64,000 nucleotides of DNA from an uncultured Alphaproteobacteria bacterium (lineage in GTDB: Bacteria > Pseudomonadota > Alphaproteobacteria > SHNJ01): assembly GCA_964647725.1 (NCBI GenBank), contig CAZYJI010000001.1, positions 74,264 to 138,263 of the forward strand, written 5' to 3'. Under the pieces are notes generated by a model. The model worked only from the letters and a program-made list of their open reading frames with translations. It did no database searches and was not told where the DNA came from. The position numbers were made by a program, and so were the translations under genes. Shown in pieces: positions 3,556-46,804 of this stretch. Positions within the stretch are counted from its first letter, which is position 1. Each line of letters opens with the position of its first letter.

Positions 3556-4289
3556 TACATCACTTTCAAAAAACATAATCCATCCGGCGGCGCGGTCGGG
3601 CCGCCTTTGGTGCGGTCTTTGGCGTCGCGGGCATTGATAAAATCGTCGATGCTCCATTTGCCGGTGCCGACCAACATTAAGGATCCTGTGATATTGCGTA
3701 CCATATGATGCAGAAACGATGGCGCGCGGATATACAGCATGATTTCATCGAAATTGCGCTGTAATTTGATTTCATGAATCGTTTTCACTGGCGATTTTGC
3801 CTGGCATTCCGAATCGCGGAAAGTTGTAAAATCGTATGTACCCACCAAGTTCTGCGCCGCTTGTTCCATGATGATATGATCTAGCGGCGATGCCACCAGC
3901 CAGCCACGGCCGCGATCGACAGTCAACGGCGCGCGGCGGTTGACGATACGGTAAATATAAGAACGTTCCTTGGCCGAAAAACGCGCATGAAAGCTCTCGT
4001 CCACTTTTTCCGCTGATAAAATGGCAATGGGATGGGGATGCAGATGAAAATTTAACGCTTCGGAAATTTTAAAAGAATCTAGATCGCGGGCACAATCGAA
4101 ATGCGCCACCTGGCCCAACGCATGTACGCCCGCATCGGTGCGTCCAGCGCCGGTAATGGTTACGCGCTCCTGGCAAAATTTGAAAATCGCTTCTTCGATG
4201 CAACCTTGAACCGATACGCCGTTATTCTGCCGTTGCCATCCGACAAACGGCGATCCGTCATATTCAATGGTCAATTTATAGCGGTTCAT
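3552..4289 (-). CDS. truA: tRNA pseudouridine(38-40) synthase TruA
   Basis: N-terminus MNRYKLTIEYDGSPFVGWQRQ and GAGRTDAGVHALGQVAHFD catalytic Asp motif. Confidence 0.9.
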   Translation of the reverse strand: MNRYKLTIEYDGSPFVGWQRQNNGVSVQGCIEEAIFKFCQERVTITGAGRTDAGVHALGQVAHFDCARDLDSFKISEALNFHLHPHPIAILSAEKVDESFHARFSAKERSYIYRIVNRRAPLTVDRGRGWLVASPLDHIIMEQAAQNLVGTYDFTTFRDSECQAKSPVKTIHEIKLQRNFDEIMLYIRAPSFLHHMVRNITGSLMLVGTGKWSIDDFINARDAKDRTKGGPTAPPDGLCFLKVMY

Positions 4290-32030: not shown

Positions 32031-32051
32031 TGGTGCCGGAAGAGGACTCGA
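32031..32051. repeat. attL-like direct repeat (copy of tRNA-Leu 3' end, 1 indel)
   Basis: Sequence tggtgccggaagaggactcga matches 46718-46740 apart from one missing C. Confidence 0.75.
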
Positions 32052-32324
32052 TTAAGGCGTCTAAACTATTGATATTTATCATGATAATAGTATGATAAAT
32101 ATATAGTACCCCCACCGATACCCCCAGTAACATTAGCTGCCAGTATGGCACCAAGTTCTGGCAAGGCAGTAAACATCATGGGGTTTTGAAAGTCAATTTG
32201 TATCGGCCTTTTTTATTTTATCACCCCACCCCCGTGGCAGGAGGGGGGCGGGCAAAATCACTTTCCTGCCACCGATCTACAAAGCATCCCGCGAGGATTT
32301 TTAAAATTTTAAAATTGGCCTGCG

Positions 32325-32750
32325 ATGGAACAGATGACCGACTTCCCCTACCGTAGATTCGTTCAAATACCGATGCAACTGGTCATGTGCCACGACATGC
32401 ACGGCTCGGCCATGAAAACTTACGGTGCTCTATGCCTATTCGCGAATAAGAAGAACATATGCTGGCCCTCCATCCACACCCTCGCCCGCATCACAGGACT
32501 TTCTAAACGGCAAATAGCACGGCATTTGAAGGCGCTGGAGAAGAAGGAACTCATCATTATAAAACGGCGAGGTAAAAGCAGAGGCAAGCGCGGCGCAACC
32601 AGTGTCTATAAACTGGCTTTTGATTTTCGTGGCTCTTCCTTCATTTGGCAGCAAATTATGGCGGGCAGGCGACATGTATGGCAGGGAGAACCAAAAACAA
32701 ATCGGAAGACATGCGAATCTGAAGAAGGTTTGGGGGTCGTACACCTCTAA
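32325..32750 (+). CDS. Winged-helix HTH_36-like protein (island replication/regulatory protein)
   Basis: Motif ICWPSIHTLARITGLSKRQIARHLKALEKKELIIIKRRGK, the HTH_36 pattern common in integrative elements. Confidence 0.6.
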   Translation: MEQMTDFPYRRFVQIPMQLVMCHDMHGSAMKTYGALCLFANKKNICWPSIHTLARITGLSKRQIARHLKALEKKELIIIKRRGKSRGKRGATSVYKLAFDFRGSSFIWQQIMAGRRHVWQGEPKTNRKTCESEEGLGVVHL

Positions 32751-32893
32751 ATCATTGATTTACCTTGCAACCGTCGCGCGGGGATGAGTGCGCAGATATA
32801 ACAGCCTGTATTTGCCATTTTGTTGCTGTGTCCGCTCTGTACTCTTCCCATGCTCCTCCCATTCTTTCTTAGAAGTTAAGGGGCACAAGTAAA

Positions 32894-33160
32894 TTATTTT
32901 TTCTCAGTCAACGCTAGCAGTTCTTCCAGTTTTTCGGGATAGTCCAGGCCGAGAAAGTGTAGATAATCTAGAAACTCGAGCGCATCCATTCTGCGCTCGA
33001 ATCGCTCTATCTTTGACAATTGCCATTGGCCCAGGCCGGTCTGTTCGGCGATATCATTTTGCTTGATTCCCTGTTTTTTGCGCTCTTCCACCAGCCAATT
33101 GAGCAGGCGGCGGTAGCGCTTATCGTAAATCGTTGCAATCCTTGATTTTGTCTTGGCCAT
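32894..33160 (-). CDS. XRE-family HTH transcriptional regulator (island repressor candidate)
   Basis: HTH region LVEERKKQGIKQNDIAEQTGLGQWQLSKIERFER. Start taken at the internal Met (MAKTKS). Divergent from the lipoprotein operon. Confidence 0.65.
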   Translation of the reverse strand: MAKTKSRIATIYDKRYRRLLNWLVEERKKQGIKQNDIAEQTGLGQWQLSKIERFERRMDALEFLDYLHFLGLDYPEKLEELLALTEKK

Positions 33161-33232
33161 ACCCCTAGGGTTGCATGCCATTATAGCATATGCCAAAATA
33201 GCCAATATTTCACATAAATACGGGGTTAAATT

Positions 33233-33844
33233 ATGATTAGAGCAATAACTTTGGCGGCTATCTTATTATTAAGCGGATGCGTAACCACGCAGCGTTACGC
33301 GCAAAACTACACAACTATTGGCGAAGATCAGCAGGTTTGTGAACAGATTAATAAAGGTTTTCCGGAAATGGTGGATTGCCTCAATGAAAAAGTGACCCTT
33401 AAAGCCACGCAGCGAGGGCCGGATGTTGACTTGCAGCTGGCATATGTCACTAGGGCGCGCGCACTAGCGCAGAAAGTGCGCGACGGAAAGATTAGTGATA
33501 GCACCGCGCGCAAAACATTGGCCAAAGAGAAAGTTATCTTAGACGATCGCCTGGCCGAACGGCAAAATCAATATTATGAATCGCAACGACAAAAAGCGGC
33601 TGCGCCGGTACCAACCAACACTGACAATTTAGCTATTTTAAACTGCATTCAGGCCGCCAATTTAATTCCAAGATCGGGCGTAGGAGGTCCGGCTGCCGCT
33701 ATTGCTTCGTGCCACGAGAATCCTTATCGAGCAGAAGATAGATTTCAGCGGGAAAAAGAAGATATGGATCGCCGAAATCGAAAAATGATATGCAAGCCAG
33801 ATTACGCCGGTAAAGCTTTAGAATGTAGTGAGGAACCATTTTAG
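33233..33844 (+). CDS. Hypothetical Cys-rich lipoprotein
   Basis: Lipobox LLLSGC at residues 12-17 and several paired cysteines in the mature part. First gene of a three-gene + strand module. Confidence 0.55.
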   Translation: MIRAITLAAILLLSGCVTTQRYAQNYTTIGEDQQVCEQINKGFPEMVDCLNEKVTLKATQRGPDVDLQLAYVTRARALAQKVRDGKISDSTARKTLAKEKVILDDRLAERQNQYYESQRQKAAAPVPTNTDNLAILNCIQAANLIPRSGVGGPAAAIASCHENPYRAEDRFQREKEDMDRRNRKMICKPDYAGKALECSEEPF

Positions 33845-33846
33845 CC

Positions 33847-34089
33847 ATGACACGGAATCTAGTTTATGTTCCCGCCTCTTGTTACGATAAGAAAATATCT
33901 GAAAATTTAAAGTTAGCCCTTCTAAATTTGGCAAACCTTAAGCCTGAAGACTTGAAGCGCTTTACTTTCGTGGAAAGAATGATTCTTATCGACGAAGCCT
34001 TCTATGCCCTTAAGAAAGGAGTCTATAATAGGCTCGATGTTCTATCAGATGAAACAAACCAAAAATATGGTGCTCACGCCATTAAATAA
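33847..34089 (+). CDS. Hypothetical protein (80 aa)
   Basis: ORF 3 nt downstream of the lipoprotein gene. No recognisable motif. Confidence 0.4.
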   Translation: MTRNLVYVPASCYDKKISENLKLALLNLANLKPEDLKRFTFVERMILIDEAFYALKKGVYNRLDVLSDETNQKYGAHAIK

Positions 34090-34188
34090 CGTCTTGGATC
34101 AAGCCAACCCTGAACTCCAGAAATGCAATAGTAATGGCGATCTAAAACCATTTCCCTTATACTATTTGAAAATGTGCTTAGGTGAGCA

Positions 34189-35520
34189 ATGGAAACAAAG
34201 AATTCTTCCGCGCATTCTCAATGCCCTTTAGCCGCTGTTGATAAGCGGCTTGAAGATGCCCATCGGCTTTGGCACCAAGCAGAACAATCTTATTTTGATC
34301 CTGAAGCTTTTCGGTTGGCAGCTCAGAACACCATACAGACTCTGCGCACCGTTTCTTTCGTTCTGCAAAATCATAAGCGGACAATACCAGACTTCGATCA
34401 ATGGTATGGCTCGCAACAAGAAAAGATGCGTGCCAATCCGTTACTGCGCTGGATAGTGGAAGCTCGCAATAAAATTGAGAAACAAGGCGATCTTGAATCG
34501 CATAGCTTAGTTCGAGTGGAAACCATCGCCTCATATCTCGATAATGGCCCAAGCATTGAAATTCCCTTTGATCTTTTTTCTCCTTCCACTCCAGCTCTCC
34601 TTCGGGAAAGCATCCCCAAAACTCCATTAGGCGATTACATAGTTAAATATGGGTCTTTGCGCATACAACGGCGGTGGGTTGAAAACAGCTTGCCCGATTA
34701 CGAACTCCTTGACGCATTGGCCATCGCTTATGGTCATATGTCCGAACTAGTTCATGACGCTCATCGTCAAATGAGCCTACCGCCGCCTAGCGTTATTAAC
34801 TGTGACGGCACTAAGGAGTTTACGTCACCCATGTTAAAGGGGAGGATGCCGTGCATGATAGGCCATCATGATCCGCGCTCTCTTATTATTTCACTAAAAG
34901 ACGGTAAAATTTTAGAATTTGAACGCAGAGGAATGATTTCTGATACGAAGATCGCGGAAATCGCTTCTGAACGTTATGAGATTGGTCCCGATAATTTCAA
35001 AAAGAATGTAGCTAACATAGAAGAACTAGCAGCAATGTATTTTCAAATTGCTCGTACGCTATTTCTAAAAGATGGTTATCACATAGATACGCTATTGTTT
35101 ATACGCGACATTAAAGTAATTAGTATGTGCGAAATTAGGATGGATAACTCACGACAGAACTATCATATTATGCGCAAAATGGCGGATGAAGCTACTCGTA
35201 TCGGAGCTGACGCCGCCATAAGAATAAATGAGATATGGGCGGCTCCCGCCAATGAATTGAGCCAGTATCAACGACCAGCTGAATATGTAGGTCGCAAGGA
35301 AGGACTCGCCTTATTTTTGGTAGGGAAAACAGGGCATCCTATTCATTTTTACGCTGACATAACAAGAAAAGAAGGTAAGGCAAGTCTCGGAGATACAGTT
35401 ATTCATCACGGTGGCGCCCCTTTCATTTTTGCACCTTTTTATCAAGCATGGGGACGTACAATACCTACAGAGTGGGAGACTCTTGAGGAAACGATGGAGG
35501 GGCTTAATAAGCAATCGTAA
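34189..35520 (+). CDS. Hypothetical protein (443 aa), uncharacterized island cargo
   Basis: Long ORF with no motif I can recognise. Cytoplasmic, with no TM or signal peptide. Confidence 0.55.
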   Translation: METKNSSAHSQCPLAAVDKRLEDAHRLWHQAEQSYFDPEAFRLAAQNTIQTLRTVSFVLQNHKRTIPDFDQWYGSQQEKMRANPLLRWIVEARNKIEKQGDLESHSLVRVETIASYLDNGPSIEIPFDLFSPSTPALLRESIPKTPLGDYIVKYGSLRIQRRWVENSLPDYELLDALAIAYGHMSELVHDAHRQMSLPPPSVINCDGTKEFTSPMLKGRMPCMIGHHDPRSLIISLKDGKILEFERRGMISDTKIAEIASERYEIGPDNFKKNVANIEELAAMYFQIARTLFLKDGYHIDTLLFIRDIKVISMCEIRMDNSRQNYHIMRKMADEATRIGADAAIRINEIWAAPANELSQYQRPAEYVGRKEGLALFLVGKTGHPIHFYADITRKEGKASLGDTVIHHGGAPFIFAPFYQAWGRTIPTEWETLEETMEGLNKQS

Positions 35521-35530
35521 TAAATTAATT

Positions 35531-35995
35531 TTAGGCCGCTTGCGCCGCTTCAATTTCAGCGAGATCCATTGCGAAATCAAAAACTATCTGGATTGGTTCC
35601 GCTTCCACATGCGCATCGTTGTAGCTGTCCACATCAGTTTTAAGTTGACGACAGTCTCCCACTATCGCTTGCCGTCTTTGCTGAAATGATATTTGCATAT
35701 GGTGTCTGGGAGCTGTGCGAATATCATCCCAAAGCACCATTTGTTCATCACCTTTGCGCGTAGAAGCAGGATGCAAGAGCCTTACACGACGCCCTTTTTT
35801 ATCCGTGATATATTCTTCACGCATAGCTGAAGCTACATCTTCCGCGCATTTGCTTATTGCGGCAGAAGCTGGAAGCTCCCAACGACCAGTGCGAATAGCC
35901 CAGGCCGCAATTGTTTTTGCAGCAGCAGGCCAAGGCTCACCCGAGCCTCTGTAGTCCTCAACAATTTTCTGCATTTGTTTAGTATATGTTGCCAT
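35531..35995 (-). CDS. Hypothetical protein (154 aa), downstream of higA-peptidase fusion
   Basis: ORF 10 nt after the HigA-like gene on the same strand. No motif recognised. Confidence 0.4.
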   Translation of the reverse strand: MATYTKQMQKIVEDYRGSGEPWPAAAKTIAAWAIRTGRWELPASAAISKCAEDVASAMREEYITDKKGRRVRLLHPASTRKGDEQMVLWDDIRTAPRHHMQISFQQRRQAIVGDCRQLKTDVDSYNDAHVEAEPIQIVFDFAMDLAEIEAAQAA

Positions 35996-36005
35996 AAGTG
36001 CTCTC

Positions 36006-37142
36006 CTATATGTTTATTGGTCCTGTGTGGCCATATCCGTCGGTAAGTGCGGACTGAATTATAATATGCCGTACTTTTAATTGATGCCTTCTGAATAAAT
36101 CCCATCGTTCCGTGCGCCTTTGTAACTGGCCAGCTACTATGCCTGGATGACGCTTAATTAGGCGCGCAAATCCAATCAAATTCTTTTCTGAATACATTGG
36201 ATCAAGACGAGCTATGAAATGCTTTATTTCTTTTTCCGGAACACAAAAATTACTAGCCGCTTGATTAGCTGCTTTTTCACAATCATTTGTATTGGAAGCA
36301 GGCTCATTTGCTTCAAACTCATCCACCATAATAGAATCTTTGCCATCCCCTCTAAGTACATGCTCAATCTCATGCCGAAGGGTAAACCAAAACCTATCTA
36401 TATAGTCTCCTTTAAGAGAGAGACCTATTACGGGAGAGTGTGCGTTCAGCCAGAAACACACCCCATCAATCTTTGATCCAGGAATAGGTTCTACTATTAC
36501 AAATCGTACCCCACATTCAGATAAAATCCCAGGAATGTGGCGCGCTTCTTCTGGCTCCGTCATTAGTAATTCAAGATTAACTAAAGCAGAACGCAATTTC
36601 TGTTCATTATATTTAGGAATTTGTAACGCAGTTGCCAAATGTTTTACACGAAAAATCCATGCGAGCTGTGCTGAGGAAAGATTCTCACTATAATTTCTCC
36701 GCGCGGCATGGGATAATTTCGGCATGTCATCTAAGGATGTAATACCAAAGAAATCAAGAACCCTAGTTTCTATTACTTCAAAGTTTTTTGAAGACTCAAT
36801 CCAGCCGCGCTTTATCATTTCTCGAACTGGAAATTTTTCACGAAGTTGGGCTTCTTTCCTAATTCTTTCAGGAACAGGATCGACGCGCGATAGTTGATAT
36901 GCAGATTCAAGATTGAGCCAAAATTCCGCACTAGTGCCAAATGCAGCAGCGATCGCTTGGGCTGTCTCCGGAGTGATGCCGCGCTTACCACTTATAATTT
37001 CGCTAATTAAGCGTGGCGGACGACCGATAATTTCGGCAAATTCTCCCTGATTCCAACCGCGCGCTTCTAGCTCGTCATGAAGATATTCTCCTGGTGGAAA
37101 TATCTCTGCTGGTTTTCTTTGTTTCATGGGTCTGTCTCTCAT
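36006..37142 (-). CDS. higA: HigA-like XRE HTH antitoxin fused to ImmA/IrrE-type (COG2856) zinc metallopeptidase domain
   Basis: N-terminus PGEYLHDELEARGWNQGEFAEIIGRPPRLISEIISGKRGITPETAQAIAAAFGTSAEFWLNLESAY matches the HigA family. The C-terminal domain carries an HEIEH zinc-binding motif. Confidence 0.7.
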   Translation of the reverse strand: MRDRPMKQRKPAEIFPPGEYLHDELEARGWNQGEFAEIIGRPPRLISEIISGKRGITPETAQAIAAAFGTSAEFWLNLESAYQLSRVDPVPERIRKEAQLREKFPVREMIKRGWIESSKNFEVIETRVLDFFGITSLDDMPKLSHAARRNYSENLSSAQLAWIFRVKHLATALQIPKYNEQKLRSALVNLELLMTEPEEARHIPGILSECGVRFVIVEPIPGSKIDGVCFWLNAHSPVIGLSLKGDYIDRFWFTLRHEIEHVLRGDGKDSIMVDEFEANEPASNTNDCEKAANQAASNFCVPEKEIKHFIARLDPMYSEKNLIGFARLIKRHPGIVAGQLQRRTERWDLFRRHQLKVRHIIIQSALTDGYGHTGPINI

Positions 37143-37147
37143 AATAA

Positions 37148-37477
37148 TCAGTGATAATCTGTAATTTCTATAACTCTAATCGTTTTCATCAGGGCGGTTT
37201 CATGCACTTCAATAATCAGCCGCCATTGATCATTTATCCTCAACGAATATTGATGCTTACGATCACCTTGCAATTTTTTAAAACGGAGGCCCCTTAATTG
37301 ATGCAAATCCTTTTCATCAGCAACGGCTCGAATAGCCTGCATGACTTTTCGGAACCCTTTGACTATCGGCTGGGAGAAGCCAGCCGTAAATTTCGGATCG
37401 GTTTCTAGTCGATCTAAATCAGCATCATCAAATTCAACTTCCATTTTCTTTATACCCTGTTTTTTTGGAATTGTCAA
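37148..37477 (-). CDS. higB: HigB-like RelE/ParE-superfamily toxin (plasmid maintenance system killer protein)
   Basis: C-terminal region GDRKHQYSLRINDQWRLIIEVHETALMKTIRVIEITDYH, typical of HigB. It sits upstream of its antitoxin with a 5-nt gap, the reversed TA order that is the HigBA hallmark. Confidence 0.7.
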   Translation of the reverse strand: MTIPKKQGIKKMEVEFDDADLDRLETDPKFTAGFSQPIVKGFRKVMQAIRAVADEKDLHQLRGLRFKKLQGDRKHQYSLRINDQWRLIIEVHETALMKTIRVIEITDYH

Positions 37478-37591
37478 GTACGAAATTACACATAATGTAA
37501 AAATGATATATTGTAAATAAAAATATAATCCATATATAACAATATGTTAATCATGTATTACTGCATAGAGGGGGCAAAAAAGTGGTGAGCT

Positions 37592-38701
37592 TTAAGCTTT
37601 TGGACTTGCCACAATGGTTTTATCGTAGCCAGGGAATTTCTGCTTTAATCTTTCGACTGTCGCCCGCCATTTAGGTTTTGTAGGCTTACACACAGTGTTT
37701 TGATTACCAAAAAAACCTATTTCCTTAATTGCTTTTTCCAAAGACACGGCTTGAATCCATTCGATAGGCACGAAATATTCGCAGCGCTCAGGATCGTCCA
37801 AATATTCACGATGATAGCTGGCTCGTTTTACAACATCTAGCACTGGCATTTTGCCCTGGGAGGTGTCTACTTGGAATGTTGCGGCGGGCTGGACTCGGCC
37901 AATAGCGCGACCGACCCCAACATATCCAGAGCCGGGTATATTCACCCAAACACGGTCGCCGGGGTTAAGCAGTTGTAGGGTTTTGCTATACCATCTACCG
38001 CCCCCGCCACAAATGAATCCATATTGTACAGCATCCGCCCAAGACCGCACCTCACTTTCACCGAACGATGAATAAAATTCACCGTTCCAAGGTTCGCTTT
38101 GGTTATCCGGTGCAGTGGCGGCGCTAATTTGAGTTTGGGCCGGGTCTAACAACCAGGCGCGGCTTAGCAATTGATCGTCACCATAATTAAAAACCTGAAA
38201 GCAAACTACATTGATTGGAATATCGCGCTCGCTAAGATAGGCAATTATGCGTTCACTGCTTTCATCTATAGCCGAAGCAACCACAATAATTTGGTGGCTT
38301 TCGTTTAAAGATTCTTCATCCAATTCCTGGTTAAAACGCTTGTGGAAATCTTCCGCAAGATTGCCGCCTTTAGTAAACCGACTATAAATAGCATTGATAT
38401 TCTCGGGTTTTAATTTAGAAACCCAGCTTGCATAGTCAATCGCCTGCGCAACAACTTCGCGCGGGGTGCGGTCTCTCTTTAATTCTATCAATATCAGCAC
38501 GCCATCCGGCGCAATTGCCAATAAATCGATTCGCCCACCATAACCGGTGTCTTCTTGCCGACCAATAAACATCCAATTTTCGTCTAATATCCTAGGATCA
38601 GCAAGAATCATGTCTTCCAGCAATCTTTCGCTGGGCAGAATCGCCTCGATCAATGGCTGGGGTTGTTGACCAACTTTCCAAATGGCATGACGAATGGGCA
38701 T
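37592..38701 (-). CDS. NucS-like PD-(D/E)xK nuclease domain fused to PUA/EVE-like domain (candidate modification-reading nuclease)
   Basis: N-terminal half GGRIDLLAIAPDGVLILIELKRD is the NucS/RecB-type D...ExK core. C-terminal half GDRVWVNIPGSGYVGVGRAIGRV...YFVPIEWIQAVSLEKAI resembles the EVE/PUA-like fold. Lies 5 nt downstream of the MmeI-like gene. Confidence 0.5.
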   Translation of the reverse strand: MPIRHAIWKVGQQPQPLIEAILPSERLLEDMILADPRILDENWMFIGRQEDTGYGGRIDLLAIAPDGVLILIELKRDRTPREVVAQAIDYASWVSKLKPENINAIYSRFTKGGNLAEDFHKRFNQELDEESLNESHQIIVVASAIDESSERIIAYLSERDIPINVVCFQVFNYGDDQLLSRAWLLDPAQTQISAATAPDNQSEPWNGEFYSSFGESEVRSWADAVQYGFICGGGGRWYSKTLQLLNPGDRVWVNIPGSGYVGVGRAIGRVQPAATFQVDTSQGKMPVLDVVKRASYHREYLDDPERCEYFVPIEWIQAVSLEKAIKEIGFFGNQNTVCKPTKPKWRATVERLKQKFPGYDKTIVASPKA

Positions 38702-38706
38702 GAGTT

Positions 38707-41700
38707 TTAGCCCGCTGCTTCTGGCAAGAAACTAATTTTATCTATTTCTTGCATAGTTTTTGCGGTTTCGGCTAGCGCCACAATTATGCGCTGCCAATGA
38801 CGAATGTCTTCAATAGTCAATTTTCGGTCTTTTCGGTCTTTCAGCCATTTTTGTGCAGGCTGATAACCGCCAATATAAAAATCCCAGGCTTCTTGTGGCA
38901 CATTGCCAAAGTATTGAGAGTCATTAATCCATACTTTGCCTTTTTCAAAACGTTGTTTTTTAACTTCATGCAGCCCATCAACCGGATATGTGGTAATTTG
39001 AGTATCCAATCTTGGACTTTCCATTAAATGCAACTCACGCAAATAAGCGCCTTTCTCTGCTAATCCATGAAAAATCTTAGTGTTCGTTGGGTAAGGAATA
39101 TAAGGAAAGTCTGACTTCAAAAACTCAGCATAGCGCTTACGATAGGTGGGGCTGTGGAGTACTGCATAGACATAATCAAACAAAGCCTCTGGCGTGGTGT
39201 CAGGAACTGTTTTCTTGATTTGGCCGAAGATTTTAGGATCGAGATTGGGTCTTCTTTGTTCTTTGCTTTGAAGCCCTTCCCCATAAAGCCAAAGGGGATA
39301 ATATAAACAAATACCTTTATTGCTGATGAAGGTACGGTTATCAATTAGTTCTCTACTAACAAAGCTATAACAATAATCCGGCACATTGTAGGCATAGTGT
39401 CTCATACTCAACAAACCGAGATTCTCTCCCGCACAAAAGTGGCGCATGACTTCTGGTCTAGGCATACATAGGAAACCACGAGATTGCCCCGTGTAATAAG
39501 TCCAGCGCGTATCGAAAGGTCGATAGCTAATAGCTCTGATATTATCAGGATTTAAGCCAGTATTCTTCAAATCATTCTGCGCCCACTCCACCCGCCAATC
39601 TCGCACATCCTTACCCAAATTGTATTCTTGGCGCGCATCTTCTATTGGCAGCATGCTAAAATTTTGAATGGTACGGATAAGATCATCGCGCTTTTCATGA
39701 ATAGTCAATTCATCCCGCGCCGTAACGATACCAACGGAATTGATGGGGAACAAAACATTCAAGGCAAAGCCTTTGTGATATTCAGCGCCTGATTTGTTAT
39801 CTTGGGGAATAAAAAAATAAAACGGCGCACGTAGAACCAGTTGTTTAAATGGCAGTTTGTTAATGCTGCCTATTTGTAGTGCATCATATTTGTTTTCGCG
39901 GCTGCCCCATAAATCGGCATGAAAAACCCTAGCTAGTTGCTTTTGTGTTTTTCCAGTTGGTTTGGCCTTAACCGCGATAATTATTGCTACTCCTTGTTGA
40001 ATATCAAACACATTCTTATCAGGCTTGCCATCAGGGGATGTTTCTTTTTGCTTTGCATTACCGTGTAAATCCAGAACATAGATATCATCAAAAGTGTTCA
40101 GTAAATGCCAGCGCATACCACGAAAAGTAGGATTATTTAGATATCCATGATTGGTTATATAAGCCAAAATTCCTTCCGCATTTTTTTGTATATAATGCTC
40201 TCCGAGACGTATGAATTTTACATAATCATCATTTAGCCATTTGGAGTTTCTTTCTTTAAGCTTGCCCCCGCTAGGCTCCTGTTTATATGCATTCATCAAG
40301 CCCATAATCCAATCACCCTTATTGGCACTTTCGCCACTATAGGGAGGGTTGCCGATAGCCACCATAATAGGCATATCTTTTTTGATGCGGCTGGCTTCGT
40401 TAGCTTCCCGGGATAGCCAGTTGGCAAACAAGGTATCAACATCAGGGTGGTACTCTTCAAGACTGTTCGTTAGATAAACACTTAAGCGCGGAGGATTATT
40501 GGCGTTAGATGGCTTGTAACCGGTTTCCTGTAGCAATAGATCTAGCTTCATATGACACATAGCATAAGAAGCCATTAACAATTCAAACCCGTGCATGCGC
40601 GGCAACAAATCGCGCTCAATATAGCTGCTCCATAAACCCTCTTGTCCTTGGAATTTTTTATAAATTTGTTTAATGATTTCGGCTAGGAAAGTGCCGGTGC
40701 CTGTGGCTACGTCCAGAAGCTGAACTTTATGTACTTCACGCACTTCCATTTTGCGACCAGTTTTAGTTCGTTGATCTTTTTCTTGTGATTCTATTTCAAT
40801 ACTAACTTTACTGGTATCAGCCAGCCCGTCTTTAAGATTAAAATGTTTTTTCAACACATCATCAACGGCACGAACAATAAAATTCACTACTGGTTCCGGC
40901 GTGTACCATACCCCCCGCGCCTTACGGAGGGACTTATCGTATTCCGCGAGAAAAGTTTCATAAAAATGAAGGATGGGGTCGTTCTGTCCCGTGGCTGTCC
41001 CGAAATCATGCAGGATAGATGGAAGATCGGTATAGCGATACACCTCGCACAGTGCGTCGATAATCCAAATAACGCGATCATCTAATTCAGGGCCGGCTAT
41101 ATAATGAAATAATTGTCTTAGAAATGGATTGCTTTTAGGGATTAAGGTCAAGGCCTCTGCGCGGGAAAAATCATGTAAGCTTTTATCATGTAAACGTGCA
41201 GTAAATAAACCATAAGTGATCGTTTGGGCATAGACATCTGCAAATTGTTTCGCATCCATGTCATGAACTAGTACTTTCTGAAATGCCGTTAATTGATCAT
41301 GTAGGGAGGTGTTCTCATTGCTTTCCAAAAGAGCTTTATGAAATACATCACGCATTAGGCGCGCTTTACGCGCCATCATCTCGGCCAATTTTTTAGCCGA
41401 TTTAATCGTTTGGCCTTGGAAAGCAGCAAAATCAATCAAGTGGTCTTTGAGACGATTATAATTTTCAGGTATCGAATTAATTTTCCCAGACGGGCCTATT
41501 TCGCCTATCCGGATCGTTTCAACTTTTTTGCCGTGCAAGAAAAATCGAAATTCAAGATAGTCCGTTAGAATCAAATTATCTAAGCTATCAAAATAACGCT
41601 TTAGTTGATCGTCTTTCTCGGCTTTATCTAGATTGATCCCTATATCTTTAGCCTCGATATAACCAACATCAATTTTACGTCGGGTCAAAATAAAATCAGG

Positions 41701-41856
41701 CGCGCCGCATTCGATACGTTTAGGATCATTTGTCGCCATAACATCCGGCATAATAGCTTCGACAAGGATTTGTAATGCTGGACGGTAAGCATGCTCCCCC
41801 GCTATGCCGGAAGCGTGGCGCTTTTTAAGATCGTCAACATATATATTGAAGGGCAT
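38707..41856 (-). CDS. MmeI-family type IIL (type IIG) restriction-modification enzyme, single-chain endonuclease + N6-adenine MTase + TRD
   Basis: 1049 aa. N-terminal PD-ExK motif (APDFILTRRKIDVGYIEAKDIGINLDKA...YF) parallels the MmeI D70/E80/K82 region. MTase motif I is LLDVATGTGTFL and motif IV is NPPYSG. The long C-terminal region is consistent with a TRD. Confidence 0.72.
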   Translation of the reverse strand: MPFNIYVDDLKKRHASGIAGEHAYRPALQILVEAIMPDVMATNDPKRIECGAPDFILTRRKIDVGYIEAKDIGINLDKAEKDDQLKRYFDSLDNLILTDYLEFRFFLHGKKVETIRIGEIGPSGKINSIPENYNRLKDHLIDFAAFQGQTIKSAKKLAEMMARKARLMRDVFHKALLESNENTSLHDQLTAFQKVLVHDMDAKQFADVYAQTITYGLFTARLHDKSLHDFSRAEALTLIPKSNPFLRQLFHYIAGPELDDRVIWIIDALCEVYRYTDLPSILHDFGTATGQNDPILHFYETFLAEYDKSLRKARGVWYTPEPVVNFIVRAVDDVLKKHFNLKDGLADTSKVSIEIESQEKDQRTKTGRKMEVREVHKVQLLDVATGTGTFLAEIIKQIYKKFQGQEGLWSSYIERDLLPRMHGFELLMASYAMCHMKLDLLLQETGYKPSNANNPPRLSVYLTNSLEEYHPDVDTLFANWLSREANEASRIKKDMPIMVAIGNPPYSGESANKGDWIMGLMNAYKQEPSGGKLKERNSKWLNDDYVKFIRLGEHYIQKNAEGILAYITNHGYLNNPTFRGMRWHLLNTFDDIYVLDLHGNAKQKETSPDGKPDKNVFDIQQGVAIIIAVKAKPTGKTQKQLARVFHADLWGSRENKYDALQIGSINKLPFKQLVLRAPFYFFIPQDNKSGAEYHKGFALNVLFPINSVGIVTARDELTIHEKRDDLIRTIQNFSMLPIEDARQEYNLGKDVRDWRVEWAQNDLKNTGLNPDNIRAISYRPFDTRWTYYTGQSRGFLCMPRPEVMRHFCAGENLGLLSMRHYAYNVPDYCYSFVSRELIDNRTFISNKGICLYYPLWLYGEGLQSKEQRRPNLDPKIFGQIKKTVPDTTPEALFDYVYAVLHSPTYRKRYAEFLKSDFPYIPYPTNTKIFHGLAEKGAYLRELHLMESPRLDTQITTYPVDGLHEVKKQRFEKGKVWINDSQYFGNVPQEAWDFYIGGYQPAQKWLKDRKDRKLTIEDIRHWQRIIVALAETAKTMQEIDKISFLPEAAG

Positions 41857-42022
41857 TATATCTGTGCCATGAGGTTATAATTTGTCAGAAACAATAATAC
41901 TCACGACAATTAATCGCAACAATAATTAACGTAATATTGGCTTCAATAATGTAATTAAGCTTCTGCCTGAAGATCATTACGTTCATTGCTCGGTGGGCAC
42001 AATTTCTATTGCCGATAGATAG

Positions 42023-44128
42023 TTAATTCTTTTCTTTCTGGGCTTCGCTTTCTGCAACTGAACGTTTTTGTTCCCCACAAAACTCACGAATGGCAGCGCG
42101 TTCTTCATATTCGTATAATGATCCATTGCTGGATTTAGCCGCCACAGCGCCACATGCAAGGTTCTCAAAGCTTTCTTGTGTTGCGGGGGCAGTCATTTGA
42201 GATTTATTGGGGACAGTTTCCGCCACGTCCCATTCGTCAGAAAGCGTAGGTTGTGGCGTTGTGGCGGCTGGAGCCTGCCCTCCCTCTAAATAACGCGCAA
42301 AAGCATCTGAGAATTGTGAAATCTCATATCCTTTAGGAGTGTTATAACTATCCAGTCTGACGGTCTTACTTTTAATCCCAAATGGCTTTAATATCATAGC
42401 TACATGGTTCGGGGTTATTGGCTTGTCACGCTTCCAACTCACCCATGGGCGTTCTTCATCTCTGCATAGAAAATCAATCAGAGAGACGGTTGAAATTTTA
42501 TCTCCCAGAACTTCAAAAGCAGCCTTGATGTCCCGAAGCATTTCTGTACCTACACTGGTGACATCTGGCCCTTCTTTTGACAAAGCAATAGCCGCATCAA
42601 AAGCTTTCTTTTGCCACCGGCTTCCTGCCAGAAACGCAATTGCAAGTAAAGGTTCCCAATTATCCGCACCACGGTCTGATAAACTATCTGGTAAAACCGG
42701 TTTGAGTGATGAAAGTGCCTGAATACTATCATCCGCCAGCCTTTTTAGTTGCGATCTAAACTTCTCAAATGAATCTTGGTTTACATCGCGTAATTTCTGC
42801 ACTTTTTCCGATTTTAATTTGCGGCGTAACTCAATGATAATTGACCGGTCACGTAGCGTATCATAAAGATCCCCGATTAAAGCAATAACCTTTGCTCCCC
42901 AAGTACTGAATTTTTTGGGTTCATGCTCATCCCCGACTGAACGAATGACAAAAGCAGTGGTGCGCGTATGCCCAGAATTAATAATGCCACGCAATTCATC
43001 TTTGCCTGCCAGAAAAGTATCAGCTTCGTCTATTAAAAGAGTAGGTTTACATAATTCAATTGTGCGAAACATTGCTGCGGGAGTTATATTAGCGGCAGGA
43101 AGCGGCTTGTTTACTAACCCATTAATTGCGGAAATTAAAGAAGTTTTTCCACACCTTTTTTCTGGGGAGCAGATAGCCAAAATTGGCGCAGTATGAAAAG
43201 CATCAATTACCCAAGTAAACAACACCCATAAAGTTACCGCAGTTTTGCTGTGTTTTGAAAGTATAACAAGAGAATCTATTATTGTAGCTATCTCATCAAA
43301 TAGCGCTGCGGCATCAACAGGTTCTGGCCATGGCTCTATTTCGGGAAAATCAAAGCCGCCTCTATTATGCTGACTTTGGGGAAATATGCGTTGCTCTTTG
43401 ACTTCTTGATCTAAGACAGATCTTCGTATTCCCAAACTAGCAGCATGTCGTGTTCTGACCCGGTCATATTCGATAGGTGATAAAGCGGCCAACTGACGTA
43501 CAATATTGGCTAGATTAATTTCTTCATTGTTAGCAAGTGTCGATATTAAGGGCGCATTTTCAACCCAATCCAAAAGATTTTTTTCCTGAAACTCAAATGG
43601 AAGTAAGTCAGCTAAGTCCCATTTCGGAGGCAAGCCTTCAGGCAACTGAACGATTCTAATTGATTTAGCCCCAATTGTGGCAAGTTGGTTGACTATAATT
43701 GAAGCATATTTTTTCCCTGCTTCATCGTTATCGGGCCAAACGACGGTGTCTCGCCCAGCTAAAGTTGACCAGTCAGTTTTATGCGCAGCTTGAGAGCCGA
43801 AGCTACTTGTTACAATAACACAGTGAGGAAAAAATCTTCTGGCTGCTTCTGCCGCTTTCTCACCTTCCACAATAATTACTAGCGCATCGTGTTTTTCAAT
43901 AATTTCAAGCAGATTATACAGCGGGCGCAATTCTGGAGCTTTAATTATCCAACGGCCATCTAGGAATGACCATGGCCTAAATTCTTTCTCTTCTTTGCCG
44001 CTAGTATTAACCTTGTTATAGCGCGTCACTACAAACGATAACTCGCCTCTTGCATCAAAATATTCCCATGCGCCAGCAAACTCTCCAATTTTAGGCTGCT
44101 GAAGCAGCTTTGAATAATCTTTTGTCAT
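42023..44128 (-). CDS. TOPRIM primase / P-loop NTPase (P4-alpha-like, DUF3987-type) replication protein
   Basis: TOPRIM acidic motifs (IIVEGEKAAEAA, VVWPDNDEAG) in the N-terminal 150 aa. Walker A (PEKRCGKTSLISAI) and Walker B-like LLIDEADTF in the central domain. Confidence 0.7.
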   Translation of the reverse strand: MTKDYSKLLQQPKIGEFAGAWEYFDARGELSFVVTRYNKVNTSGKEEKEFRPWSFLDGRWIIKAPELRPLYNLLEIIEKHDALVIIVEGEKAAEAARRFFPHCVIVTSSFGSQAAHKTDWSTLAGRDTVVWPDNDEAGKKYASIIVNQLATIGAKSIRIVQLPEGLPPKWDLADLLPFEFQEKNLLDWVENAPLISTLANNEEINLANIVRQLAALSPIEYDRVRTRHAASLGIRRSVLDQEVKEQRIFPQSQHNRGGFDFPEIEPWPEPVDAAALFDEIATIIDSLVILSKHSKTAVTLWVLFTWVIDAFHTAPILAICSPEKRCGKTSLISAINGLVNKPLPAANITPAAMFRTIELCKPTLLIDEADTFLAGKDELRGIINSGHTRTTAFVIRSVGDEHEPKKFSTWGAKVIALIGDLYDTLRDRSIIIELRRKLKSEKVQKLRDVNQDSFEKFRSQLKRLADDSIQALSSLKPVLPDSLSDRGADNWEPLLAIAFLAGSRWQKKAFDAAIALSKEGPDVTSVGTEMLRDIKAAFEVLGDKISTVSLIDFLCRDEERPWVSWKRDKPITPNHVAMILKPFGIKSKTVRLDSYNTPKGYEISQFSDAFARYLEGGQAPAATTPQPTLSDEWDVAETVPNKSQMTAPATQESFENLACGAVAAKSSNGSLYEYEERAAIREFCGEQKRSVAESEAQKEKN

Positions 44129-44355
44129 TTTCTTGCTCCCGGGTCGTTAATTAAGCCCAGTTTCTGTAAGGATATTTTTACTTCAACTTGCGAACAACCA
44201 GCAAAACAATGCCAAAGCAGTTTCCCATTTTTTTCCGCGATAGACAAAGAAGGGGATCTATCATTATGAGCGGGGCAACAAGCTTTGCCACGCTTGCCAT
44301 CCCATTGGCCTTTTAGTTTAAGAGTTACTTCTTCTGCGCTATATTTTTTACACAT
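44125..44355 (-). CDS. CHC2-type zinc-finger protein (primase zinc-binding domain, separate ORF)
   Basis: Motif CPAHNDRSPSLSI...WHCFAGC matches the DnaG-type CHC2 zinc ribbon. The stop overlaps the TOPRIM gene start (ATGA). Confidence 0.6.
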   Translation of the reverse strand: MCKKYSAEEVTLKLKGQWDGKRGKACCPAHNDRSPSLSIAEKNGKLLWHCFAGCSQVEVKISLQKLGLINDPGARK

Positions 44356-44401
44356 GATAATCCTTCATGTCGCTGTGCACTGCAACGCTATCGGCATTTC
44401 T

Positions 44402-44620
44402 TTATTGATTGCTGACAGCAACAGAATTTAGGAATTTCTGGATATCAGATACGCGCCACGCAGTAATGCGTTCGCTTAGCTTGACAGGTTTTGGGTATCG
44501 GCCGGTTTTTATGCCTTCCCAGAAGGTCGATTTGCTAACCGGTATAAGCTTTAAAACGTCCGGCAGCCTTAAATAGCCGTCATTATCAAGGGTATTATTG
44601 GTTTTCATAGGTTGCTCCAT
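44402..44620 (-). CDS. alpA: AlpA-family phage regulatory protein / excisionase-like DNA-binding protein
   Basis: Motif YLRLPDVLKLIPVSKSTFWEGIKTGRYPKPVKLSERITAWRVSDIQKFL matches the AlpA/prophage CP4-57 regulatory family. Confidence 0.75.
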   Translation of the reverse strand: MEQPMKTNNTLDNDGYLRLPDVLKLIPVSKSTFWEGIKTGRYPKPVKLSERITAWRVSDIQKFLNSVAVSNQ

Positions 44621-44703
44621 CCAGTTGAATCTGGTTGGATTCTATGAGAGCCGTGATAGGCCCTGGGCGAATTCGCCTAAATAAAAAGCGAATTCGCCTT
44701 TTA

Positions 44704-45345
44704 TTATTCTTTGGATTCTTCTGCTATATACTCCACTGACGCATCAGCATGTTTTCTTATAGTTCCATCATCCATGGAAAACCCACAGGCTTGAATACGG
44801 TTACTTATTTTCCCTACAGCCTCTCTGCTCGGATAACCATAATGGCTTTTCAAAATACAGCCCAAAATTTTCATAAGCGATTTATTTTCTTTAGCCAAAG
44901 AGGCTTGATTTACGATTTTTTGTAATTGCTCTTTAAGCTTTTCATTCTCTTCCATTAAAACATTGCATTGGGCTTTGTAATCTACAGCGGATAATTTCTT
45001 CTTTTCATATGCGGCCATCAATGCTTTCGGAGGCGCGATGCCCCTCTGTATTAGCCAGTCAACAAATTTTATGGCTGAAACAAGCCCTATTTGCTCCTTG
45101 AAAATATTATCTCCAGACCTTTCCATAACCCTCAAGAGTTTTTGTGAGTAACTAGGAAGCTGGCTAGGATAATTAATCACCTTAGTGCCATAAGGATTTA
45201 GATTTATATTATCTTCATCTGGATTATGCCCATATGCCAATAACGCTGCTTCGGAAAGACTCCAATAATCCGAGGCCATCCAATCTTCGTAATTTATGTT
45301 ATGATGAAAAGTATCCAATACTTTAGTTTCGTCAAATTTAGGCAT
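44704..45345 (-). CDS. Hypothetical coiled-coil protein (213 aa)
   Basis: ORF between alpA and int with a central coiled-coil (QCNVLMEENEKLKEQLQKIVNQ). Confidence 0.45.
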   Translation of the reverse strand: MPKFDETKVLDTFHHNINYEDWMASDYWSLSEAALLAYGHNPDEDNINLNPYGTKVINYPSQLPSYSQKLLRVMERSGDNIFKEQIGLVSAIKFVDWLIQRGIAPPKALMAAYEKKKLSAVDYKAQCNVLMEENEKLKEQLQKIVNQASLAKENKSLMKILGCILKSHYGYPSREAVGKISNRIQACGFSMDDGTIRKHADASVEYIAEESKE

Positions 45346-45346
45346 T

Positions 45347-46570
45347 TTATGAGACCCTTTTTCTATTCTTAAATGCTACTACGCGGCCAGTATCAGCAAT
45401 AACCGAATCAACATAATCCGCCCATTGCTGCATCATCTTCTTCCGCTCTGGCAAATATTCAGCGCGGTTATACGCGGCGCGGACACTATTGCGCTCTTTA
45501 TGCGCTAGCTGCCGCTCTATTACATCCGGTTTAAAGCCAAGTTCATTCAATGTGGTAGAAGCAAGCGCGCGGAATCCATGGCCCACCAGCTTTCCTTTAT
45601 AGCCCATCCTTTGCAGCACTTGATTAATTGCGTTTTCGCTTATCATTGGATTTTTTCGCCGTTGGTAAGATGGAAGCAGCAGCTCAGAGCGTCCCGTTAA
45701 TTTTCTCAATTGTTGCAAGAGTTTTATGACTTGTTTGGAAAGCGGTACGATGTGCTCTCTGCGCATTTTTGTGGCATGAGCTGGCATAATCCAGACATTG
45801 TCTTTGAAATCAAAATCCGTCCATTTAGCGTGGCGCAGTTCGCCCTGCCGAACAAATGTAAAAAGCAGAATTTTAATAGCCAGCCGGATTTCTTCTGCCG
45901 TGCCTACAGTTTCCAGCTTGTGCCAGAGTTGAGGGATTTCTTTCGCATTGATGGTTGGATAATGACTCGCCTTATGAGCTTTAAGCGCTCCCCGCAAGTC
46001 AGCCGCAGGATTATATTCGGTGCGACCGGTTGCGGTAGCATATCGAAAAATAACCGAACAGGTCTGCAACACACGATGCGATAACTCTGTTGCATCCCGT
46101 TTTTCTACCTTCCGTATAACGTCCAGTAATTCGACAGGTTTAATGTTTTTGACCGGCACATGGCCAAGAAAGGGAAATATATTGGCTTCTAAGCGCCTCA
46201 AAATCTTGGCGCTATGCGCTTTTGTCCATTGGACTTGATTGGCTGCATGCCACTCCAAGGCAATAGCTTTAAAGCTATTATTGGCGTCAAATTGCGCCAT
46301 ACGCTTATCTTCGCGCCGTTTTAGGCTTGGATCAATTCCATTAGCTAGCTGTTTCCGCACTTCCAGGCGCTTTTCCCGCGCTTCGGATAGGCTAACTTCG
46401 GGATAGGCCCCAAAGGTCAAAAGCTTCTCTTTACGATGGTAGCGGTACTTAAAGCGCCAGATTTTCGAGCCTTTAGGGGTCACATAGAGAAATAACCCTT
46501 CTCCATCCGCAATCTTTTGGGGTTTGGCTGTCGGCTTGACATTACGAATTTTGGTGTCGGTGAGGGCCAT
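45347..46570 (-). CDS. int: P4-type tyrosine integrase (DUF4102 N-terminal + phage_integrase catalytic domain)
   Basis: N-terminus LTDTKIRNVKPTAKPQKIADGEGLFLYVTPKGSKIWRFKYRYHRKEKLLTFGAYPEVSLSEAREKR is the DUF4102 arm-binding domain. The C-terminus has the R...HxxR...Y catalytic pattern (HGFRALASTT...RAAYNRAEY). Confidence 0.88.
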   Translation of the reverse strand: MALTDTKIRNVKPTAKPQKIADGEGLFLYVTPKGSKIWRFKYRYHRKEKLLTFGAYPEVSLSEAREKRLEVRKQLANGIDPSLKRREDKRMAQFDANNSFKAIALEWHAANQVQWTKAHSAKILRRLEANIFPFLGHVPVKNIKPVELLDVIRKVEKRDATELSHRVLQTCSVIFRYATATGRTEYNPAADLRGALKAHKASHYPTINAKEIPQLWHKLETVGTAEEIRLAIKILLFTFVRQGELRHAKWTDFDFKDNVWIMPAHATKMRREHIVPLSKQVIKLLQQLRKLTGRSELLLPSYQRRKNPMISENAINQVLQRMGYKGKLVGHGFRALASTTLNELGFKPDVIERQLAHKERNSVRAAYNRAEYLPERKKMMQQWADYVDSVIADTGRVVAFKNRKRVS

Positions 46571-46717
46571 AAGGATATCCGTTTATACCCCCAACGATAC
46601 CCCCAAATGTGCCGGATGTCAACCGACCCCCTCGGACATCAGCGGACGTAAAAACCTTATTTTATCTATGTTAAAATGATTCTGTCGGATGTCATCGGAC
46701 ATCCTCGGAGGGAGTAA

Positions 46718-46804
46718 TGGTGCCCGGAAGAGGACTCGAACCTCCAAGATGTTACTCACTGGTACCTGAAACCAGCGCGTCTACCAATTCCGCCATCCGG
46801 GCGC
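46718..46804 (-). tRNA. tRNA-Leu (anticodon CAG)
   Basis: Minus-strand read: GCGCCCGGAUGGCGGAAUUGGUAGACGCGCUGGUUUCAGGUACCAGUGAGUAACAUCUUGGAGGUUCGAGUCCUCUUCCGGGCACCA. It has a 7-bp acceptor stem, an anticodon loop UUCAGGU (CAG), a long variable arm, GGUUCGAGUCC in the T-loop and an encoded CCA. Confidence 0.85.

Follow-up and report, generated by a model that had tools for sequence, protein, structure and literature searches.

In this study, we analyzed a 64,000-nucleotide stretch of DNA (the window, meaning this whole stretch at its full length) from an uncultured Alphaproteobacteria bacterium of the lineage SHNJ01 (assembly GCA_964647725.1, contig CAZYJI010000001.1, positions 74,264 to 138,263) and, within it, an operon of three genes that we call A, B, and C. 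A first-pass annotation, made from the letters of the DNA, had described a HigB toxin gene, a HigA antitoxin gene fused to an ImmA/IrrE-type metallopeptidase, and a third open reading frame (ORF) of 154 residues. Our ORF calls on the window place A, B, and C head to tail and co-directionally on the minus strand, at the coordinates that the annotation had given, with its gaps of 5 and 10 nt correct for the longest ORFs and with the toxin gene ahead of the antitoxin gene, as in HigBA; only the starts that it had taken for A and B are probably too far upstream, judging by the lengths and alignments of homologs. These genes make up an intact operon of the toxin-antitoxin type, akin to the E. coli defense system PD-lambda-2, and the locus consists of the following features:

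37148 to 37477 as longest ORF, likely 37148 to 37444, minus strand: gene A, a HigB/GraT-family RelE-fold toxin
36006 to 37142 as longest ORF, likely 36006 to 37127, minus strand: gene B, a HigA-type helix-turn-helix (HTH) with an M78 (ImmA/IrrE) zinc peptidase
35531 to 35995, minus strand: gene C, 154 residues, of an uncharacterized family
37522 to 37550, minus strand: candidate sigma-70-type promoter TTAACA-17-TATATT upstream of the operon, with 10 of 12 consensus matches

Sites such as this promoter were no more common upstream of the operon than in shuffled sequence, which makes it weak evidence; a ribosome-binding site (GGAGAG) precedes the ATG of C by 5 nt. Each of the three proteins has hundreds to thousands of homologs, and dozens of unrelated genomes show them in synteny, far above what chance would give.

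The domain identities named in the first-pass annotation (HigB-type toxin, HigA HTH, and M78 peptidase with HExxH) were borne out by matches to PF05015, TIGR02607, and Peptidase_M78, respectively. Gene A matches the Pfam family HigB-like_toxin (PF05015) with an E value of 2.1e-9. It also aligns with GraT, a toxin of Pseudomonas putida (6f8s_B, 2.3e-7), and the alignment takes in the D-Y-H at the C terminus. The catalytic residues of A are intact: this DYH is kept in 48 to 50 of 53 homologs, and R32, R62, and R75 are invariant among them. Such retention, in about 50 of the 53 sequences, argues for A being an active RNase. The longest ORF of A opens on a TTG at 37477 and encodes 109 residues, but since homologs mostly have ∼93 to 99, the most likely start is the ATG at 37444, which gives a protein of 98 residues.

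Gene B couples the two halves of a known regulatory pair in one chain. Its match to TIGR02607, the HigA equivalog, exceeds the model cut-off (1.7e-14, residues 16 to 87), and in Pfam B matches HTH_3 and Peptidase_M78, the latter at residues 215 to 318 (E = 2.9e-8). Residue numbers of B follow the 378-residue longest ORF, which starts at 37142; the ATG at 37127, for a protein of 373 residues, is the most likely start, because an identical protein (P0271) is recorded at 373 residues and because of the homolog alignment, in which the consensus MxxRxPAE falls on residues 6 to 13. The parts of B, all on the minus strand, are as follows:

36879 to 37106, residues 13 to 88: HigA-like HTH domain
36681 to 36722, residues ∼141 to 154: low-confidence loop with the motif F-x-H-A-A-R-R, between a helical linker and the peptidase
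36189 to 36500, residues 215 to 318: M78 peptidase core
36360 to 36374, residues 257 to 261: HEIEH (H257-E258-x-x-H261)
36276 to 36278: E289, in the M78 core
36009 to 36116, residues 343 to 378: C-terminal extension, with D368 and G369 invariant

An alignment of 46 B sequences drawn from many phyla shows no change at H257, H261, or E289 and very little at E258; this HExxH...E arrangement is the zinc site of IrrE-type enzymes. Given the conservation of these zinc-site residues, the peptidase is probably active. The AlphaFold2 model of B has a mean pLDDT (predicted local distance difference test) of 86.9, with low-confidence residues at 1 to 11, 146 to 151, and 278 to 283, and structure comparison shows its C-terminal domain to have a CapP-like peptidase fold. 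The second low-confidence segment, residues 146 to 151, has a pLDDT below 50 and belongs to the loop listed above, whose H145 and R149 are invariant and A146 to R148 nearly invariant among close homologs; F-x-H-A-A-R-R is the majority consensus of B across phyla. From these features, the loop may be a candidate self-cleavage or pseudo-substrate site.

Among the PADLOC models, B matches PD-Lambda-2_B (PDLC03982) with an E value of 1.7e-46 and 157 bits, over residues 18 to 361 and profile positions 61 to 396 of 402. Other HTH-peptidase models (RmrA and capP) scored much lower, and weak matches to capP and capH are present too. PD-Lambda-2_B also matches the B proteins of A-B (two-gene) loci, of B-C loci, and of a phage, so that B marks a wider family of HigA-peptidase fusions with a variable third position. 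Among operons of this family, that position is absent (plasmids of Acaryochloris and Rhodococcus), filled by a C of the type found in the window, or filled by a Beta_protein (E. coli).

Gene C itself belongs to a large family of its own. The protein was unmatched in Pfam, NCBIfam, PADLOC, and PHROGs; 82 members of its family showed no consistent family when searched against Pfam and no match in PADLOC either. Homologs number 1,258 at E ≤ 1e-3 in a database clustered at 90%, all of them hypothetical or unnamed, and an exhaustive search yielded 1,183 clusters at 50% identity from many phyla, nearly all stand-alone proteins of ∼150 to 200 residues. An AlphaFold2 model built on an alignment of 82 sequences reaches a mean pLDDT of 95.7 and shows, in order:

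residues 4 to 59: three N-terminal helices
residues 62 to 91: a four-stranded beta-meander
residues 97 to 128: a long helix
residues 142 to 153: an acidic C-terminal helix

All 82 sequences share R72, W89, and R108, and the conserved core is arginine rich. A Foldseek search of the model against the BFVD viral models returned a single marginal, unnamed match (A0A220NS53, E = 5e-3, template-modeling score 0.43), and profile searches of PDB sequences with C matched nothing; C has no known fold relative among solved and viral structures. Two candidate identities were rejected: C is not a Beta_protein, as it has no match to PF14350 or, even at E ≤ 10, to PD-Lambda-2_C and is 154 residues long compared to an alignment over residues 5 to 358, and it is not a SecB-type chaperone as found in toxin-antitoxin-chaperone (TAC) systems, as there is no match to SecB by sequence or fold. 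The protein ends in Ala-Ala (encoded at window positions 35534 to 35539), as do its counterparts in 34 of 56 loci despite the variable length of the preceding tail, and in four betaproteobacterial loci it ends in ...ELALAA. This ending resembles the ClpX-recognized end of the ssrA tag, which suggests that C is probably short-lived in Proteobacteria.

The first-pass annotation had proposed that the 154-residue ORF may be part of the unit and that the neighborhoods of homologs be checked for it. We draw on a scan anchored on C, taking one genome per species, in which ORFs were called anew and searched with the three window proteins. The scan gave 71 loci from Alpha- and Betaproteobacteria, Planctomycetota, Chloroflexota, Gemmatimonadota, Acidobacteriota, Patescibacteria, Verrucomicrobiota, Deinococcota, and others, which divide as follows:

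A-B-C complete: 51 loci
A-B, with C running off the contig end: 2 loci
upstream region too short to test for A: 7 loci
B-C, with room for A but A absent: 8 loci
C fragments only: 3 loci

A, B, and C are thus contiguous and co-directional in 53 of the 61 testable loci, a figure that counts the 51 complete loci and the 2 in which C runs off the contig end, and this synteny strongly confirms C as part of the unit. Identity to the window proteins falls in parallel (37 to 70% for A, 35 to 68% for B, and 32 to 83% for C). The flanking genes of the cassette show no conservation across loci, and the unit is therefore exactly A, B, and C, with B-C as its core. In the eight B-C loci without A, the position of A is taken by a transposase-like ORF in two, five are from Deinococcota, and one has no evident cause. 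Loci from Bosea had at first looked like further B-C pairs without higB, which proved to be an annotation artifact, as fresh ORF calls recover the gene. In one Bosea sp. (locus L001, 3441 to 3869), the stored annotation misses the higB-like gene at 3588 to 3869 on the plus strand and calls a 141-residue ORF on the opposite strand instead.

The far end of B follows the presence of C. Three plasmid homologs of B that align to at least residue 371 (from Paraburkholderia, Methylocapsa, and Mesorhizobium) all have C downstream, and the B of Thauera, which also aligns to at least residue 371, is followed by a decayed remnant of C. In the two-gene forms examined (plasmids of Acaryochloris and Rhodococcus), which are without C, the alignment ends at about residue 341. 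Since the extension is seen, among the forms examined, only together with C or its remnant, the last ∼35 residues of B are a candidate interface; by this co-occurrence, we infer that residues 343 to 378 may contact C. C is an obligate partner of B, and their linkage is evident in these loci. In Thauera sp. K11, the locus lies on plasmid pTX1 (L081, 3648 to 5163) and holds an A-B pair followed by C residues 96 to 149 (tblastn, 7.5e-7); next comes a 419-residue protein that matches the candidate defense family PDC-S54 (7.6e-162).

In related loci, the cassette is mobile as a passenger of insertion sequence (IS) elements of the IS1 family. A 295-residue IS1-family transposase lies divergently upstream of A in 17 loci, separated from it by ∼105 to 112 nt in the three loci measured. 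Inverted repeats GGTAGTGGGTCAGTTTGAA... flank the transposase together with A-B-C, in units of 2.9 to 4.6 kb, and the terminal repeats GGTAGTG..TCAGTTTGAA are IS1-type ends. Of 12 complete units, 9 are bordered by perfect 8-bp target-site duplications, which means that the cassette transposes as IS1-family cargo. Such units include the following:

L085, 4271 to 7770: IS1-family unit with the cassette
L086, 4241 to 7766: IS1-family unit with the cassette
L008, 3115 to 6939: IS1-family unit with the cassette
L021, 3015 to 7013: IS1-family unit with the cassette
L051, 3594 to 6811: IS1-family unit with the cassette
others of the same kind

A second IS family carries the shorter form. One Trueperaceae genome has three copies of the B-C segment without A, two of them inside a 4.4-kb IS1595-family element (L066, 2891 to 7307, and L068, at the same coordinates) and the third at L067, 4752 to 6508. 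This element has inverted repeats of its own, GGAATCAACGGTTACAGGCT, with an 8-bp duplication, TTCGAGAA, at one copy, and its transposase is co-directional with B-C. A phage and plasmids carry the triad as well. In the cultured Achromobacter phage CF418P1 (OQ817832.1; L080, 1882 to 3809), it stands next to lysis genes and encodes proteins of 95, 371, and 161 residues, of which the second is annotated as "antitoxin" and matches PD-Lambda-2_B at 4.2e-49; on a Paraburkholderia plasmid, it stands beside Type I restriction and abortive infection (Abi) genes. Viral contigs seldom hold the triad: a scan of them with a shallow alignment of C yielded 3 loci.

Most loci, the window included, have no adjacent transposase. 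Near the window copy, neither such a transposase nor the IS1-type terminal repeat (at up to 3 mismatches) was found, and the operon sits instead in a 14.7-kb integrative island (32036 to 46739) with a GC content of 41 to 46%, compared to 49 to 51% outside. The island ends in a 16-nt exact direct repeat, CCGGAAGAGGACTCGA, at 32036 to 32051 and 46724 to 46739, and the second copy falls inside a tRNA-Leu(CAG) gene at 46718 to 46802. Its other genes include the following:

45347 to 46570: tyrosine integrase
42023 to 44128, minus strand: 701-residue DUF3631 protein (7e-40) with a weak Toprim match, adjoining the integrase
38707 to 41856, minus strand: 1,049-residue Type IIG restriction-modification enzyme (PADLOC REase_MTase_IIG, 1088 bits; Pfam Type_ISP_C)
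37592 to 38701, minus strand: 369-residue PDC-S11 candidate defense protein (6.6e-157) with a NucS-like nuclease region
34189 to 35520, plus strand: 443-residue protein of the phage family phrog_19262, of unknown function (3e-43), without a Pfam match

The DUF3631/Toprim protein could act in the replication of the island much like a primase, on the model of P4-like satellites. The Type IIG and PDC-S11 genes lie directly upstream of the operon, and the gene for the 443-residue protein converges with C, the two stop codons being 10 nt apart; linkage of these three genes to the cassette was not found in other genomes.

The first-pass annotation treated this arrangement as unexplored, yet it was noted in 2009 and validated as a defense system in 2022. 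Makarova, Wolf, and Koonin reported RelE and PIN toxins adjoining Xre-COG2856 fusions and predicted a three-component system (PMC2701414). Their operons contain the same pair of toxin and fused Xre-peptidase, without a description of a conserved third gene of the C family found here (PMC2701414). Vassallo et al. then isolated PD-lambda-2 from E. coli ECOR42, where three proteins, one HigB-like, one a fusion of HigA-HTH and peptidase, and one "related to a P4 phage antitoxin," defend against lambda-vir by abortive infection (PMC9519451). In that system, B was toxic alone and A rescued it, and the third gene was required for defense and not for neutralization (PMC9519451). Among the papers that it covered, a literature search found no work on the exact triad or, after 2022, on the mechanism of PD-lambda-2.

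Compared to PD-lambda-2, the operon of the window is alike in that (i) three co-directional genes stand in the same order; (ii) a HigB-like protein of RelE fold comes first; (iii) B is homologous over nearly its full length as a fusion of HigA-HTH and M78; and (iv) both are carried on mobile DNA. It differs in its first and third genes. PD-lambda-2A is PF09907 HigB_toxin and PD-lambda-2C is PF14350 Beta_protein over residues 5 to 358, according to the published HHpred table (PMC9519451), whereas A of the window is PF05015 HigB-like_toxin, unmatched by the PADLOC model PD-Lambda-2_A even at E ≤ 10, and C is an unrelated protein of 154 residues. The locus would thus fail the PADLOC rule for a system call, with B matching and A and C not, and it is a variant of the PD-lambda-2 kind, not a member as currently defined. 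What is new here is a different HigB subfamily, a large uncharacterized third-gene family without a solved-structure relative, and carriage in insertion sequences.

Other known systems share parts of this design. HigBA and GraTA also have the toxin gene first, a toxin that ends in DYH, and a HigA-type XRE HTH, but the canonical HigA has ∼100 residues, no enzyme domain, and no third gene, in contrast to a B of 373 residues with a peptidase. ImmR/ImmA of ICEBs1, DdrO/IrrE of Deinococcus, and CapH/CapP of the cyclic oligonucleotide-based antiphage signaling system (CBASS) pair an XRE HTH with a COG2856/M78 peptidase that bears HExxH and a downstream Glu, and the fold of B is CapP-like; in the window, however, a single chain contains both, the HTH at its N terminus, and it comes with a HigB toxin and a small partner of its own, with no regulated downstream regulon evident. 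The toxin-antitoxin-chaperone systems HigBAC and CmdTAC are likewise three-gene, HigB-type modules whose third protein controls the antitoxin, some of them triggered by phage, but that third protein is a SecB-like chaperone, and B carries a peptidase and not a chaperone-addiction tail.

Based on these comparisons, we favor, with a confidence that falls slightly short of even, the reading that the locus is a mobile, toxin-antitoxin-derived module of the PD-lambda-2 type, in which a peptidase gates the release of HigB and C acts as the controller. In ImmA/ImmR, IrrE/DdrO, and CapP/CapH, the peptidase cuts its XRE partner upon a signal, and it is by analogy with these pairs and with PD-lambda-2 that we infer who neutralizes whom, that B is cleaved, what C does and how labile it is, and what acts as the trigger. 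A would be a ribosome-dependent mRNA endonuclease of the HigB/GraT type, which the HigA domain of B would bind and neutralize while also repressing the operon. The M78 zinc peptidase would serve as a switch built into B, and C would set its state, either as a sensor or as an inhibitor. C could be changed by an infecting phage, by a halt in translation, or when the element is lost; in response, the peptidase would cut B, and the F-x-H-A-A-R-R loop, conserved and disordered, is a plausible place for the cut. The freed HigB would then stop translation and so cause abortive infection or postsegregational killing. The earlier suggestion of a phage-triggered abortive-infection switch agrees with the experiments on the homologous architecture of PD-lambda-2 (PMC9519451).

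Several observations weigh against this reading. The toxicity of PD-lambda-2 B alone and its rescue by A are the opposite of a simple HigB-toxin model (PMC9519451), and the polarity assumed in the first-pass annotation, with HigB as toxin and the HigA-peptidase as antitoxin, is thus not to be taken for granted. A and C have no detectable homology to PD-lambda-2A and PD-lambda-2C, and the phenotypes are therefore not directly transferable. A is dispensable for some members, given the eight B-C loci without it. Upstream of A, a search for an operator found no inverted repeat with a seed of at least 6, and several homologous loci have ordinary metabolic genes as neighbors and are not part of defense islands. 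Outside Proteobacteria, in the homologs from Planctomycetes and Deinococcota, the tails of C are acidic and lack Ala-Ala.

The main rival to the favored reading reverses the polarity, as in E. coli PD-lambda-2. Here, B would be the growth-inhibiting effector, acting by proteolysis of a host target or by DNA binding, A would be its inhibitor, and C would be a sensor that licenses B during infection. We consider this unlikely, even though it would accommodate the PD-lambda-2 C that is required for defense and not for neutralization (PMC9519451), the invariant active site of the peptidase, and the B-C pairs without A in Deinococcota and some other loci. These same pairs cut the other way, as a B that is toxic alone would need another neutralizer where A is missing. 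Moreover, purifying selection acts strongly on the DYH of A and on its invariant arginines, which is unexpected for a mere inhibitor, and A here comes from a different HigB family than PD-lambda-2A.

A second alternative, which we regard as quite unlikely, is that the operon is purely an addiction module, stabilizing its carrier IS, island, plasmid, or prophage by postsegregational killing, with no role in phage defense. Its carriage would suit this role: the cassette is an IS1-family passenger in 12 complete units, 9 of them with perfect duplications, its B-C form occurs in a multicopy IS1595-family element of one genome, and other copies are found on plasmids and in an integrative island. 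A labile component with an ssrA-like tail would also fit killing by decay. However, addiction by decay needs no dedicated signal-responsive peptidase, the neighbors in the window are restriction and candidate defense genes, and the homologous architecture of PD-lambda-2 did give phage defense (PMC9519451).

Two further alternatives are improbable. The HTH of B could repress a divergent transposase promoter or island genes, as in an ImmR/ImmA-like switch, so that stress would make the peptidase destroy the repressor and mobilize the element, with HigB as an add-on. The control of ICEBs1 by ImmA/ImmR is a precedent (cited in PMC2701414), and the gap between A and the transposase that is divergent in 17 loci, short in the three loci measured, could hold one shared operator; yet most loci lack an adjacent transposase, that of the IS1595 unit is not divergent, and the HTH is specifically of the HigA type, the partner of HigB toxins. 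Nor do we give much credence to C as a new kind of toxin, with B as its antitoxin and regulator and A as a second, optional toxin on B: the invariant B-C core, the linkage of Xre-COG2856 fusions to different toxins (PMC2701414), the arginine-rich core with its invariant residues, and the lack of known fold relatives all speak for it, but C has no recognizable catalytic motif, its place downstream of the putative antitoxin and its likely degradation tag better fit a labile regulator than a stable toxin, and the third gene of PD-lambda-2 is an accessory factor, not a toxin (PMC9519451).

The rescue from an HTH-peptidase by a HigB-like protein in E. coli PD-lambda-2 is odd. The window-type, B-C-only, and A-B-only relatives described here can be set side by side as a series to ask which partner is the sensor, which one kills, and what the peptidase cuts. 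Since none of Pfam, NCBIfam, PADLOC, and PHROGs includes the C family, loci of this kind would escape current defense-system finders. We speculate, tentatively and with the balance of probability against it, that C represents a class of new-fold sensors or regulators that gate a peptidase-bearing antitoxin, that the third position of these operons is a swappable trigger module, and that two IS families have captured the cassette as self-protecting defense or addiction cargo. In the related loci, the 8-bp duplications around the units provide a concrete case of a toxin-antitoxin/defense operon that spreads inside simple insertion sequences.

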